Position numbers and translations under genes: made by a program. The notes below the pieces were generated by a model. That model did no database searches. It saw only the letters and a list, made by a program, of their open reading frames with translations, and was not told where the DNA came from. A stretch of 64,000 nt of DNA from Lewinellaceae bacterium (GTDB taxonomy: Bacteria > Bacteroidota > Bacteroidia > Chitinophagales > Saprospiraceae). Where the stretch lies: assembly GCA_020636435.1 (NCBI GenBank), contig JACJXX010000002.1, positions 2,722,921 through 2,786,920 of the forward strand. Reading direction: 5' to 3'. The first letter of the stretch is position 1; each line of letters starts with the position of its first letter. Of this stretch, positions 6,068 to 47,589 are shown piece after piece.

Positions 6068-6115
6068 GTGCGGATGTACGAATACACGAATTCACGGATA
6101 CATGGATGTACGGAT
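6068..6115. repeat. octamer word array, 6 units (GTRCGRAT-like)
   Basis: Reads gtgcggat gtacgaat acacgaat tcacggat acatggat gtacggat, with strict 8-nt period. It abuts the left end of the A1 core. Confidence 0.85.
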
Positions 6116-6330
6116 GAGGGTGCTCCGGAAACTATTGATGGCGAAGAATATTTTGTCCACCCCCTAAATCCTCCCGAAACTCGTTCGGGACAGGCTCCGC
6201 CAGCGGGGGACATTTCCTCCGATTCAGGGGTGTGTTTTCCCCCGCTGGCGGGGGGCAGGGGGTGGAGTCCAAATAAAATTTCCCATTATTGGGCACAGGA
6301 GTTCCAAACTAGACTTTCCGGAGTAGCCTC
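6116..6330. mobile_element. family A palindromic MITE-like core, copy A1 (215 bp)
   Basis: Identical to 18076-18266 apart from 3 substitutions and one 24-nt indel. TIRs are GAGGGTGCTCCGGAAA and GAGGCTACTCCGGAAA (reverse complement). It has an internal 14-bp hairpin CCGCCAGCGGGGGA/TCCCCCGCTGGCGG. Flanking direct repeats are ACGGAT and ACGGGT. Confidence 0.8.
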
Positions 6331-6444
6331 ACGGGTACAGGGGTACACGGGTGCACGGGTGCACGGGTGCACGGGTGCACGGGTACACGGGTACACGGGT
6401 GCACGGGTGCACGGGTACACGGGTACAGGGGTGCACGGGTGCAC
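6330..6444. repeat. octamer tandem array (CACGGGTR) x14
   Basis: 115 bp of strict 8-nt period with two CAGGGGTR variants. It ends one base before the complement of the ZIP gene stop codon at 6445-6447. Confidence 0.95.
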
Positions 6445-7182
6445 TTAAAGCAAATCCGCCGCCAAAGCGAGGCTTATTCCCAATAGGATAACACCCATTT
6501 TGGCCCAGGAAACATGGTGTTGGCGGTCGTCATCGGCCTCAAAGAGGATGGTGGTGGAAATGTGCAGAAAAGAACCAACGACAAATCCCAGCAGGTTGGC
6601 CATAGCCGCCGGGCTAAGGGAAAAGCTGCCGGCAAGCAGCGCGCCGAGCGGAGACATAGCGGCGAAGAAGGCCAGGCAAAGCCAGGCCGTTATCCGCCGA
6701 AAGCTGGAGAGCAGCAACAGCGATACCAAAGCAAAGGCAGCGGGGAGTTTGTGCAGCACGATGCCGATTAGCAGATGCTGGTGCCCATGAGCGTGCCCGT
6801 GTTGCAGGGCGTAAAATTCGTCGTAATGGCTGAGCGGCATGCCTTCCAGGAAGGCGTGCAGAGACAAGCCGATCATCACCTGGAGGGCCAGGCTCGACCC
6901 GCTGTGGTGGTGGGCGTGAATGTGCCCGTGTTCGACGCCCTGGGTCAATTGCTCCAGCAGGAGCTGGACCAGAAAGCCGGCGAGTATCCAAAGGCTGGCG
7001 GACGCCTCGGGCACCGAGAACGCTCCCGGCATGAGGTGCAATACCGTGATGCCCAATAAATAAGCGCCACTGAAGGAAAGGACCAGCTTCAGCGTCGCCC
7101 GCGCCTGGCTGTGAAACCGAAACGCCAAAGCCCCACCCAAAAGGACGCAGAAAAAGAGCAGCAAATATTCCCAAATGGCCAT
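6445..7182 (-). CDS. ZIP-family divalent metal transporter (ZupT-like)
   Basis: 245 aa and multi-TM. It has the His-rich loop HGHIHAHHHSG and the HAFLEGM motif. Confidence 0.9.
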   Translation of the reverse strand: MAIWEYLLLFFCVLLGGALAFRFHSQARATLKLVLSFSGAYLLGITVLHLMPGAFSVPEASASLWILAGFLVQLLLEQLTQGVEHGHIHAHHHSGSSLALQVMIGLSLHAFLEGMPLSHYDEFYALQHGHAHGHQHLLIGIVLHKLPAAFALVSLLLLSSFRRITAWLCLAFFAAMSPLGALLAGSFSLSPAAMANLLGFVVGSFLHISTTILFEADDDRQHHVSWAKMGVILLGISLALAADLL

Positions 7183-7213: not shown

Positions 7214-7314
7214 CTAGTCCAAGCGGCACGAATTAACGGGGCAGTTAAGAGCCCTGGAAACCTGGCTATATGGGCTACCGAAACTGCCCGGTTATTTCGT
7301 TCTAGTCGCACTAG
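7214..7314. mobile_element. family H palindromic element, copy H1 (101 bp)
   Basis: Bounded by CTAG at each end. The last 78 nt match the reverse complement of 34510-34587 with 1 mismatch. Confidence 0.75.
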
Positions 7315-7393
7315 CTCCTTTCCCGGTTTCGGCAAGGCCTGGGCCCGCCGCTTCGTGCGATCTTTTACTATGGCAGGCAAATGGCACTGGAAA

Positions 7394-14140: not shown

Positions 14141-14147
14141 AAAAGAC

Positions 14148-14234
14148 GGAACGCGGATGACGCGGATCTGGCGGATTTTCGCGGATAGCTCACGCGTCGC
14201 TTCCATATCTGCGTGTATTCGCAAAATTCGCGTT
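14148..14234. repeat. CGCGGAT-word palindrome K1 between convergent genes
   Basis: The left arm is GGAACGCGGATGACGCGGATCTGGCGGATTTTCGCGGAT. The right arm is ATATCTGCGTGTATTCGCAAAATTCGCGTT. The same module recurs at 15604-15642 (reverse complement) and twice in 32128-32271. Confidence 0.7.
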
Positions 14235-14928: not shown

Positions 14929-14991
14929 GCTTGCTTTTTTTTCGCCACGAAGGCATCGCGAAGGCTTTGTGTTTTCAGGGTGGCGGCCTAA

Positions 14992-15179
14992 TTCTACTTT
15001 GTTACTTTAACACTGAGACCGCAGATTGTAGGCTGCTCAACTGCTGACCAGCAGTTGAGCAGCCTCTCTGCGTCCACGAATTTGAACCGCAGAGAGCGCT
15101 GGGATACGCAGAGAAAGTGCCGCCCCCCTGCGTCTCTCCGCGTCCCCTGCGGTTAATTTTTTAAAGTAACAAAGTAGTA
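14992..15179. mobile_element. family B element, copy B1
   Basis: Shell TIRs are CTACTTTGTTACTTTAA (14994-15010) and TTAAAGTAACAAAGTAG (15161-15177). CTAA direct repeats lie at 14988-14991 and 15180-15183. The interior carries a perfect 17-bp hairpin, AGGCTGCTCAACTGCTG (15030-15046) with CAGCAGTTGAGCAGCCT (15049-15065). Confidence 0.8.
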
Positions 15180-15275
15180 CTAAATAGTTGCGTTATTTTT
15201 AGAACAACACAACCTTCCAGTAGTTTGGCGCCCTCCACTTTTGGATTTCCTTAACTCCAGTCAGGAAATATTTTT

Positions 15276-15548: not shown

Positions 15549-15580
15549 GTAAATGTGCGAAAGTGTAAACGTGTAAACGT
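15549..15580. repeat. octamer word array (GTAAANGT) x4
   Basis: Reads gtaaatgt gcgaaagt gtaaacgt gtaaacgt. The word is related to the arrays flanking the A2 core at 18015-18047. Confidence 0.75.
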
Positions 15581-15603: not shown

Positions 15604-15642
15604 ATCCGCGTCAACCCGCCCGATCCGCGTCATCCGTGTTCC
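15604..15642. repeat. CGCGGAT-word module K2 (inverted copy)
   Basis: The reverse complement reads GGAACACGGATGACGCGGATCGGGCGGGTTGACGCGGAT, which aligns with K1 and the 32128/32229 copies. Confidence 0.7.
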
Positions 15643-15647
15643 ATCCA

Positions 15648-17986: not shown

Positions 17987-18317
17987 CATACTACTGGACA
18001 TTTTAGGGGCTACCGTGTAAATGTGTGAAAGTGTAAACGTGTAAATGCTTGGGAATCCCGTTCTTTTACACATTTGAGGGTGCTCCGGAAACTATTGATG
18101 GCGAAGAATATTTTGTCCACCCCCTAAATCCCCCGCCAGCGGGGGACATTTCCTCCGATTCAGGGGTGTGTTTTCCCCCGCTGGCGGGGGTCAGGGGGTG
18201 GAGTCCAAATAAAATTTCCCATTATTGGGCACCGGAGTTCCAAGCTAGACTTTCCGGAGTAGCCTCACATTTACGCTCTTACACATTTACACGATCCGGC
18301 AAATGTCCAGTAGTATG
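17987..18317. mobile_element. composite MITE J (331 bp) carrying palindromic octamer arms and a nested A core
   Basis: The 17-bp TIR is perfect: CATACTACTGGACATTT (17987-18003) with AAATGTCCAGTAGTATG (18301-18317). The 9-bp TSD AATAGCATA is perfect, at 17978-17986 and 18318-18326. Confidence 0.9.
18076..18266. mobile_element. family A core, copy A2 (191 bp), nested in J
   Basis: Same sequence as 6116-6330 minus a 24-nt hairpin insert. It is flanked by a perfect 6-bp direct repeat ACATTT (18070-18075 and 18267-18272) within the GTGTAAAT/ACATTTAC octamer arms. Confidence 0.85.
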
Positions 18318-22373: not shown

Positions 22374-22415
22374 AAATACTTCAGGTTTTAGTTAGTTTGG
22401 CCTTCTGAATGGACT

Positions 22416-22506
22416 TGAAGCCGGAAGTGCGAAGTCGGAAGTCGGAAATAGCCAACGAATGGGCGTTCAGAGCCTGTTTTTCCGCCTTCCGAATTCCGCC
22501 TTCCGC
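22416..22506. repeat. heptamer word-array palindrome M
   Basis: The left arm is gaagccg gaagtgc gaagtcg gaagtcg gaaatag (22416-22450). The right arm is ttccgcc ttccgaa ttccgcc ttccgcc (22479-22506). The arms are approximately complementary. Confidence 0.75.
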
Positions 22507-22676
22507 CTTTGACGCCAGACTGTCCAAGGTCTAGCCTATGAATGTCGCAAAAATAACTCAATTCCCAAAAGAGGCCGTAAGATAACCCCACAAATTCTGG
22601 AAAATGAAACCTACAGGGCAGCCAACGGAATAATATAACAAAAATAAACCGGATTTGGATTGGCCGCGTTCCATAA

Positions 22677-22837
22677 GAGCGTGTTGGGATTTTCATGCTG
22701 AAGTTGAAAATGAGCAAATTTTGCCTCAATCAAGGCCCGTACGGGCAGTCGGATGCGGGCAATCCGGCGAAAAATTTAACGCCGAGTGAGGGAAAATTTG
22801 CCATTTGCAGGCCAGCAATGGAATTCCCAACACGCTC
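22677..22837. mobile_element. family E MITE-like element, copy E1 (161 bp)
   Basis: TIRs are GAGCGTGTTGGGA and TCCCAACACGCTC. It is flanked by TAA at 22674-22676 and 22838-22840. Confidence 0.8.
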
Positions 22838-22883
22838 TAAGGTGTATCCGGAAGCAGGCACGGCGCGTTGGGCGATCCCCTAA

Positions 22884-23045
22884 GAGCATGTTTGGAGGTG
22901 GTGCTTTGGAAGCGAAAATGGCAGATTTTGGGTTCTGATGAAGCTCATTTTCGAGCGCATAGCAGCGCTACGGGCGAGAAAATAGCTGAAATCAGGTTCC
23001 AAAAGTGGCCATTTGCAGCCCAAATGACTACCTCCAAACATGCTC
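22884..23045. mobile_element. family E MITE-like element, copy E2 (162 bp)
   Basis: TIRs are GAGCATGTTTGGAGG and CCTCCAAACATGCTC. It is flanked by TAA at 22881-22883 and 23046-23048. Internal blocks shared with E1 include GAAAATG.GCA.ATTTTG and GCCATTTGCAG. Confidence 0.8.
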
Positions 23046-23048
23046 TAA

Positions 23049-23428
23049 AACTACTTTCTTACTTTAAAATTTAGCTGGCTTGGGAGCGCGGGCCTCCAGG
23101 CCCGCCAGGGCAATTGCATTTGAATAAAACTGACCTCGAAGAGGTCATATATCTATAGAAAAGGAATGTTTGCCCCTTCGACCTCAAAGAGGTCGTACAA
23201 ATGGACATAAGTACGACCTCTTTGAGGTCGAAAATTCTCATAATCGGTGAATTTCTATAGATATTTGACCCGCTTTGGGGTCAATAACATTTAAATGCGA
23301 TTGCCCTGCCAGGCCCGCGAAGGCTGCCTCAGGCAGCCCTTAAAAGGCAGTTGTTTACTAAAAACCTGCTTCAAGCAGGTTTTCGCGGGCCTGGAGGCCC
23401 GCGCTCCTTTTAAAGTAACAAAGTAGTA
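23049..23428. mobile_element. family B element, copy B2 (380 bp), containing nested element Q
   Basis: Shell TIRs are CTACTTTCTTACTTTAA (23051-23067) and TTAAAGTAACAAAGTAG (23410-23426). The second layer is GGAGCGCGGGCCTCCAGGCCCGC with GCGGGCCTGGAGGCCCGCGCTCC. Outside Q, the interior is collinear with B3. Confidence 0.85.
23106..23308. mobile_element. element Q (203 bp) inserted inside B2
   Basis: TIRs are CAGGGCAATTGCATTTGAAT and ATTTAAATGCGATTGCCCTG (18/20). The 10-bp TSD CCAGGCCCGC is perfect, at 23096-23105 and 23309-23318; B3 has a single copy of this site. Inner layers are a 13-bp perfect palindrome ATATCTATAGAAA/TTTCTATAGATAT and a 22-bp perfect hairpin (23177-23198 with 23211-23232). 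Confidence 0.9.
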
Positions 23429-23440
23429 ATAAATAAATCT

Positions 23441-34277: not shown

Positions 34278-34509
34278 AGTTTTGAGATTGTTATGAAAAG
34301 GAGATATTGCATGTTTTCAATATAGCCCAGGCTTTCCAGCCGAGAAGCCCATCGCTGCAAATGCGAGAACCGGCTTTTTATGAGAGCGTACAAATACTGA
34401 AAAGGCGAACAACAGAGGCAAGGAACCTGTTCACGCCAACATCGAAACACGATGGCAGAAGTTGCAGAAAAGACAACTACTTTGCAAAATGGAGATTTAA
34501 CCGACCTGG

Positions 34510-34610
34510 CTAGTGCGACTATAACGAAATAACCGGGCAGTTTCGGTAGCCCATATAGCCAGGTTTCCAGGGCTCTTAACTGCCCCGCTATTTAGTGCGC
34601 GAGGCACTAG
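34510..34610. mobile_element. family H palindromic element, copy H2 (101 bp, inverted relative to H1)
   Basis: Bounded by CTAG. The right-hand CTAG (34607-34610) contains the TAG stop codon of the PorP/SprF gene. Confidence 0.75.
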
Positions 34611-44883: not shown

Positions 44884-44948
44884 GCTCCCGGAATGTCTTT
44901 ACATAGCAGCTTTGCCTACCCAATCAACTAATTTTACCAGGCTCATAG

Positions 44949-45124
44949 TTCTACTTTGTTAACTTAACAGGAGCGCGGACCTCCAGGTCCGCGAAGGCTG
45001 CCTTTGGCAGCCCTTTAAAAGGCAATATCGTACTAAAAACCTGCTTCAAGCAGGTTTACGCGGACCTGGAGGTCCGCGCTCCAGGCTCTCCGGCCATGCG
45101 GAATTTTAAGTTGACAAAGTAGAA
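44949..45124. mobile_element. family B element, copy B3 (176 bp)
   Basis: TIRs are TTCTACTTTGTTAACTTAA and TTAAGTTGACAAAGTAGAA. The 4-bp TSD ATAG is perfect, at 44945-44948 and 45125-45128. The interior is collinear with B2 minus element Q. Confidence 0.85.
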
Positions 45125-45139
45125 ATAGAGACGGTCAAC

Positions 45140-47525: not shown

Positions 47526-47533
47526 GGGGGGGG

Positions 47534-47589
47534 CAGTGTATCAGTGTATCAGTGTTGCAGTGTATCAGTGTATCAGTGTTGCAATGTTC
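47534..47589. repeat. octamer word array (CAGTGTWK) x7
   Basis: Reads cagtgtat cagtgtat cagtgttg cagtgtat cagtgtat cagtgttg caatgttc, which is also a 24-nt higher-order repeat x2. It lies between the dehydrogenase stop and the decarboxylase start. Confidence 0.9.

Follow-up and report, generated by a model that had tools for sequence, protein, structure and literature searches.

We examined a 64,000-nucleotide stretch of the genome of a Lewinellaceae bacterium (assembly GCA_020636435.1, contig JACJXX010000002.1, positions 2,722,921 to 2,786,920 of the forward strand; hereafter the window, in whose numbering all positions are given) and found that a 388-bp palindromic unit (23045-23432), which contains the element copy B2 (23046-23431), most probably represents a stack, built up in successive events, of three kinds of small selfish DNA that are unrelated to one another, a reading to which we assign a probability of about 0.85. 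These are an outer inverted-repeat element bounded by TA (the shell), a doublet of inverted repetitive extragenic palindromic (REP) hairpins, and Q, a 203-bp non-autonomous element of the ISAs1 family. The first-pass annotation, made from the sequence alone, had described a MITE (miniature inverted-repeat transposable element) within a MITE within a palindrome, with five concentric layers and at least two insertion scars. The features on which it relied (the block, its terminal repeats, the duplication and the hairpins) were all located where it had placed them, but their interpretation changed. Five layers became three elements (shell, REP doublet and Q), because the internal symmetry of Q itself accounts for three of the five; the demonstrable scars came down to one, the 10-bp duplication of Q; and Q had inserted not into the terminal repeat of a MITE but into a RayT-associated REP hairpin of an inverted doublet. 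The structure is explicable without any cellular function, and the appropriate annotation of the block is three stacked mobile elements, not a gene, not an RNA and not one exotic palindrome. That mobile elements insert into one another is already familiar, and Q itself belongs to a known kind of element. What is surprising is the REP hairpin: its sequence, which is associated with RayT genes of Alphaproteobacteria, recurs, identical at every base, in a genome of the Bacteroidota, where it lies within another element.

Q occupies positions 23106-23308 and is bounded by 20-nt terminal inverted repeats, CAGGGCAATTGCATTTGAAT (23106-23125, + strand) and, read on the other strand, CAGGGCAATCGCATTTAAAT (23289-23308, - strand), which agree at 18 of 20 positions; this pair was the sole match in the window, where 0.01 would be expected by chance. 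The 10-bp sequence CCAGGCCCGC directly flanks Q on both sides (23096-23105 and 23309-23318, both on the + strand; 10/10 identical). Elsewhere in the window lies a related copy, B3 (44946-45127), in which the shell and the REP doublet occur without Q and which is collinear with B2 apart from the 203-bp block. In B3 the site is single: CCAGGTCCGC occurs once and is followed directly by GAAGGC, as in B2. When Q and one copy of the duplication were removed, the B2 core was identical to the B3 core at 100 of 113 positions (88%). With the target present once and with this level of core identity, B3 works as a paralogous empty site, as had been proposed. Elements of the ISAs1 family have terminal repeats of 14-22 bp starting with CAGGG and generate a direct repeat of 10 bp (PMC11946415), and ISArsp11 provides a worked example (PMC6305408). 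The ends of Q and the length of its duplication match this family, which upholds the earlier proposal of a transposed miniature element with a true 10-bp target-site duplication. Thus, by all sequence criteria (CAGGG ends, 10-bp duplication, small size, no transposase open reading frame (ORF) and an empty site), Q is a non-autonomous ISAs1-family derivative.

The interior of Q is itself highly symmetrical. Its two halves are mutually inverted copies of approximately 70% identity, which is why Q looks like three concentric palindromes. The 13-bp inverted repeat noticed at first extends to 19 nt at 95% identity, and the perfect 22-bp hairpin lengthens to arms of 27 nt at 93% (central hairpin, 23177-23232). 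Three small perfect palindromes of the form GACCTC-NNN-GAGGTC (at 23132, 23180 and 23215) are also present, two of them within the central hairpin. Q alone was predicted to fold at -60.6 kcal/mol (z = -13.9), and the longest ORF across it is a spurious frame of 56 amino acids.

Relatives of Q were collected by scanning genomes, one per species, with its 20-nt end, two positions of which were made two-fold degenerate. The resulting 20-mer, CAGGGCAATYGCATTTRAAT, matched more than 120 contigs from many phyla, compared with approximately four expected by chance (arithmetic for 2 x 596 Gb). The matches, often near contig ends, included Rhodothermales, Bradyrhizobium, Porphyromonas, Lewinellaceae, Saprospiraceae, Chloroflexota, Planctomycetota and Acidobacteriota. 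In these contigs similarity ended just inside the 20-mer and the outer flanks were unrelated; the 20-mer therefore behaves as a transposon terminus. Four full-length elements with ends of this type, from genomes other than the host, measured 1314-1598 bp, and their proteins were assigned to the ISAs1 family transposases (NF033564, E = 9e-119) with the Pfam domains DDE_Tnp_1_assoc and DDE_Tnp_1 (PF13808 and PF01609). Among 41 two-ended relatives (82-1711 bp, mostly of MITE size), a perfect 10-bp duplication was found in 18, and four more had 8-9 of 10 matching positions. A metagenome-assembled genome (MAG) of the Saprospiraceae contained a mini-element of 55 bp with the duplication CCAACCTCCT. 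The 20-bp ends of Q would be recognized by an ISAs1 DDE transposase acting in trans; Q may then have integrated at cuts staggered by 10 bp, after which repair of the gaps would have doubled CCAGGCCCGC.

The same scan also outlined a subgroup of ISAs1 elements. Its 20-nt terminus, CAGGGCAATYGCATTTRAAT, is exactly conserved in at least eight phyla, its subterminal sequence inside the 20-mer is unrelated between lineages, and numerous short derivatives, 55-495 bp long and with duplications of 10 bp, have arisen from it.

The site that Q entered lies in the left REP unit (23083-23105, + strand; GGAGC-GCGGGCC-TCCA-GGCCCGC), which is intact upstream of Q. The duplicated bases are three loop bases and the 3' half-stem of this hairpin, the target of Q being the loop and 3' half-stem of one of the two inverted units of the doublet. 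Insertion of insertion sequences (ISs) into REPs is known for IS1397, ISKpn1, ISPpu9, ISPpu10 and ISRm22 (Tobes and Pareja 2006, PMC1525189). Several Bradyrhizobium copies of the ISAs1 end adjoin hairpins as well. A general preference of this ISAs1 subgroup for hairpins was considered and rejected, with 5 of 121 ends located at hairpins compared with 2.2% of control positions.

The layer that was first described by its arms (GGAGCGCGG...), a perfect 23-nt inverted repeat in B2, is made up of REP units of the form GCGGRCC-TCCA-GGYCCGC arranged as a REPIN-like (REP doublet forming a hairpin) inverted doublet. The right unit (23385-23407, - strand) is the reverse complement of the left. Between them, downstream of Q, lies an asymmetric spacer (23319-23384, + strand) with two small hairpins, one at 23322-23338 (GGCTGCC-TCA-GGCAGCC) and the other at 23363-23381 (AACCTGCTTCAAGCAGGTT). 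This spacer is kept in B3, whose units are found at 44970-44992 (+ strand) and 45060-45082 (- strand), so that the 64-kb window contains two REP doublets. Two characters of REP doublets are present: a short GC-rich palindrome with the 5' tail GGAGC, and two inverted units separated by a short spacer. No duplication flanking the doublet was seen. RayT-type elements, whose Y1 transposases are of the IS200/IS605-like kind, are expected to leave no target duplication.

To follow this unit beyond the window, metagenomes were scanned with the REP 23-mer, leaving free the two positions at which B2 and B3 differ. More than 120 contigs were matched, with guanine plus cytosine (GC) contents of 58-72%, and on the contigs listed the 23-mer occurred as single 28-nt palindromes, as inverted doublets and in tandem arrays. 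The spacers of 46 inverted doublets on these contigs were 12-127 nt long (median 15), a range that includes the asymmetric structured spacer of 65 nt shared by B2 and B3; that spacer itself was absent from all alphaproteobacterial REP doublets compared. The two free positions, 10 and 19, form the third base pair of the 7-bp stem. This pair was A-T in 143, G-C in 26, C-G in one and G-T in four of 177 units, with three mismatches; it thus covaries, being of Watson-Crick type in 170 of the 177. B2 carries the G/C allele and B3 the A/T allele. Some doublets have different alleles in their two arms, and therefore the conserved unit is the hairpin of each arm rather than a long stem between arms.

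Other searches with these sequences gave negative results. The REP doublet had no match in plasmids, a literature search for the REP sequence returned solely unrelated eukaryotic matches, and no copies of the B interior were found in viral contigs or by the spurious-ORF search, the REP loci matching by their arms only. Short-read contigs of the same organism break repeatedly inside the arms. We had considered these breaks as a sign of copy number and rejected this, since poor read coverage over hairpins fits them equally well.

With respect to REP diversity in general, soil contigs of high GC content contained the unit GGAGCGCGGRCCTCCAGGYCCGC in abundance, singly, in doublets and in tandem arrays, and the arrays had a period of 30 nt in three contigs (L192, L210 and L258). 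Other REP types (GGGAGCGCGCCACTCCGTGGCGC and CCGGACCGCGAGCCTCCGGCTCGC) were nested with this unit in a manner resembling bacterial interspersed mosaic elements (BIMEs).

The link to RayT came from two of these contigs. L213 (53-704) and L192 (6349-7129) encode Y1 transposases (PF01797) in which the RayT motifs HUH and Y..NPV are present, and each gene has the exact REP 23-mer on both sides in inverted orientation. They were found with a RayT sequence as the query and then confirmed by Pfam; an IS200 TnpA used as a Y1-transposase probe found nothing. The nearest named homologues are RayT or "transposase" proteins of Reyranella. The hairpin also flanks RayT homologues of approximately 70% identity, where its 5' tail reads GGACC.

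Among the matches listed, every nameable host of the REP 23-mer was alphaproteobacterial, whereas our host belongs to the Bacteroidota (a Lewinellaceae/Phaeodactylibacter MAG; GC content 54.9%), and contigs of GCA_020436565.1 are identical to the window. The 23-mer is also carried by two large contigs (JAESFW01) of Brevundimonas, one of which matches B3 over 28 consecutive bases. Altogether, the identity between the local REPs and those of Alphaproteobacteria (Reyranella-like contigs and Brevundimonas) extends over 23-28 nt, and the covarying pair occurs in both of its alleles. REPIN-RayT systems have been described as lineage-specific, with almost exclusively vertical inheritance (bioRxiv 10.1101/2021.07.10.451892). 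Judged from the nucleotide identity, it is conceivable, albeit doubtful, that the REPIN was transferred between phyla and, independent of its RayT, is now disseminated as the cargo of a transposon unrelated to it. The host may have a RayT of its own and an ordinary REPIN population, and we treat the transfer between phyla as a lead and not as a result. If true, it would contradict the lineage-specific, vertical view proposed in that study; if confirmed, the identity would bear on horizontal movement or transposon hitch-hiking of REPINs.

The shell is the third element type. It has inverted ends of approximately 20 bp (CTACTTTGTTACTTTAA; end form CTACTTTGTYAMYTTAA) and is present in three copies in the window: those of B2 and B3 enclose the REP doublet, and the third (B1, 14989-15182) encloses an unrelated interior of 146 nt without REP units. 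In B2 the left end (23046-23069, + strand) consists of TA (23046-47), three variable nucleotides and the inverted repeat CTACTTTCTTACTTTAAAA, of which 20 nt correspond to 23408-23427 with 95% identity; the right end (23408-23431, - strand) has the inverted repeat, three nucleotides and then TA (23430-31). Ends matching the left end of B2 were found at 14989-15012 and 44946-44969, and all three shells read TA, three nucleotides, CTAC ... GTAG, three nucleotides, TA. This outer TA fits either a target duplication or the outermost bases of the repeat, given three copies and no empty site. No match to the shell pattern was found in viral contigs.

Because B2 and B3 share both shell and doublet and B1 has the shell without the doublet, the doublet would most likely travel as cargo of the shell in this genome. 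The simplest reading, so far as the shell, doublet and asymmetric 65-nt spacer common to B2 and B3 indicate, is that shell and doublet were multiplied as one unit. The order of events might then be that shell and doublet came first and were duplicated into B2 and B3, after which Q inserted into B2.

Several observations weigh against the three-element reading or parts of it. The shell is separated from the doublet by different linkers, 13 nt on the left in B2 (23070-23082, TTTAGCTGGCTTG; without a counterpart there in B3 when B2 minus Q is aligned with B3) as against 21 nt on the right side of B3, which may instead reflect independent entry of the doublet. Both the cargo relation and the TA duplication are drawn from few copies, namely two doublets and three shells. 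No RayT gene is present in the 64-kb window, and no ISAs1 transposase was found among its 304 ORFs. A second copy of the interior of Q was found neither among the at least 120 genome loci listed nor in viral contigs, and the 56-amino-acid spurious ORF across Q gave no match as a query in protein space. Finally, the choice of a REP as the target of Q may be incidental. By eye, the 13-nt linker of B2 weakly resembles the reverse complement of the 21-nt linker of B3, as a flipped interior would produce, but the two are too short for any claim.

Among the alternatives, the one that survives best, although we regard it as improbable, is that the REP doublet belongs to an independent active REPIN population with a resident RayT and entered two shells separately instead of being carried by them. 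Linkers that lie on different sides and are of unequal length in the two copies would be expected in that case, as would the different alleles of B2 (G/C) and B3 (A/T), both of which occur in REP populations elsewhere, where doublets are free-standing. However, both doublets of the window (2/2) lie inside shells, both have the 65-nt asymmetric spacer that the alphaproteobacterial doublets lack, and the window contains no RayT.

The shell could also be a host palindromic site of approximately 40 bp, such as an operator or terminator, at the centre of which different elements had inserted. The three shells indeed hold unrelated interiors (B1 compared with B2 and B3), and the joined half-sites give a near-perfect palindrome. 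Nevertheless, no uninterrupted shell palindrome exists in the window, the interiors have no duplication at the shell boundary, and the outer TA in 3/3 copies, together with gene contexts that differ among the copies (divergent, convergent and tandem gene pairs), fits a transposed element better. We therefore consider a host site a clearly weaker explanation than a mobile shell.

A functional role for the unit, as a structured RNA or as a palindrome involved in regulation (small RNA, riboswitch or attenuator) rather than as selfish DNA, is very improbable: the predicted folds of the unit are very stable and it lies between divergent genes, 40 nt upstream of a solute-binding-protein gene, but each layer is accounted for by a known mobile-element signature. 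The secondary-structure prediction for the unit gave a single hairpin at -126.9 kcal/mol, compared with -46 +/- 4 for shuffled sequences (z = -18). The whole window had no Rfam matches at the gathering threshold, and a relaxed threshold gave only sub-threshold, micro-RNA-like chance matches to the central hairpin. Terminator- and promoter-like sites were not above shuffled expectation. The intergenic position of the three stacked elements may affect transcription of the neighboring genes.

With regard to the age of the insertion, four further independent assemblies carry part of Q at the same site (contigs L001, L271 and L272), entering it from either flank, and Q is therefore no assembly artefact. 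L001 diverged by approximately 1% over 5.9 kb and had three substitutions within Q, which implies that the insertion is older than the split of that strain. No B2 lacking Q was seen, and the B3 region is identical in the MAG GCA_020436565.1. A former presence of Q in B3, followed by its precise excision or its removal through recombination between the 10-bp repeats, is hardly credible, even though a precise loss would restore a single site and be indistinguishable by sequence, because B3 is an old paralogue, as indicated by the other REP-pair allele on all four half-stems and by 13 differences at 113 core positions, and because 120 REP-bearing loci from elsewhere have no similarity to Q. Whichever history of B3 holds, Q is an insertion with a duplication. 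Thus, Q offers a clean and datable example of an ISAs1-derived MITE, with terminal inverted repeats, a 10-bp duplication, a paralogous empty site and fixation in several strains.

B2 is situated in a 1.1-kb intergenic region between a DUF6580 gene and the solute-binding-protein gene, where small elements have piled up. Two copies of an element of approximately 163 bp with inverted ends (AGAGCRTGTTKGGA), A1 (22676-22838) and A2 (22883-23046), are 64% identical and lie in tandem upstream of B2, whose TA adjoins the last base of A2. Further upstream, a 127-bp block (22412-22538) that is rich in CGGAAG/CTTCCG and has the direct repeat TGAATG at its bounds is absent from a contig of another sample (L275); it is either a small insertion with an orthologous empty site or the result of a deletion between the 6-bp repeats. 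Near B1, a contig from another sample (L138, 1-628) diverges at position 15187, after the right end of B1, into a LysM-domain gene; either the DNA was rearranged at the boundary of the element or the metagenome contig is a chimeric join. B1 also lies, together with a YggS-like gene and a small ORF, in a 1.4-kb segment bracketed by a 42-nt inverted repeat (14145-14186 and 15604-15645; 86%) that consists of GCGGAT-type short repeats.

Further repeats were noted elsewhere in the window. Intergenic tandem arrays with a period of 8 nt (CACGGGTG-, TCAGTGTA- and GTAAATGTG-like), unrelated to B2, were found at 6314-6465, 47533-47588, 15549-15577 and 18009-18045. A direct repeat of approximately 240 bp (6115-6357 and 18075-18293) is 91-98% identical over a distance of 12 kb, and one of its copies adjoins an 8-nt array. 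A 90-nt inverted repeat (7226-7315 and 34509-34598), with 96% identity and copies 27 kb apart, probably represents a dispersed repeat family.

When the three elements were compared with known systems, each showed both clear similarities and features of its own. The shell resembles TA-flanked MITEs of the IS630/Tc1-mariner type in its inverted ends of approximately 20 bp, an outer TA in 3/3 copies and variable interiors. Correia elements and RUP are examples of such MITEs. However, the transposase partner of the shell is not known and its TA may be the end of the repeat, and membership in this group is not established.

The doublets of B2 and B3 resemble REPINs and their RayT systems (Bertels and Rainey 2011, PMC3116915; Nunvar et al. 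2010, PMC2817692) in their GC-rich inverted hairpins, and the likeness extends to the covarying stem pair, the lack of a target duplication and the 23-mer that flanks PF01797 genes elsewhere. They differ from REPINs in that the local spacer of 65 nt has two hairpins of its own, compared with a median of 15 nt elsewhere, that both doublets lie inside another inverted-repeat element, and that they occur in a Bacteroidota host with no RayT in the window. BIMEs and other mosaic intergenic repeats likewise combine several palindromic unit types in one intergenic block, and nested REP-type hairpins of this kind are also present in two of the soil contigs (L177 and L245). In contrast with BIMEs, one layer of B2 is a transposon with terminal repeats and a duplication rather than a further REP.

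As for Q, it has in common with ISAs1, ISEc1/H-repeat and ISArsp11 the ends of approximately 20 bp starting with CAGGG and the 10-bp duplication (PMC11946415; PMC6305408), but it differs from these elements in being only 203 bp long, in lacking a transposase, in having halves that are inverted copies of approximately 70% identity and in its three small palindromes. Its position recalls the REP-targeting ISs (PMC1525189), in which the element likewise lies within a REP hairpin and the duplication is made of REP sequence, although ISAs1 is not among the five families listed there.

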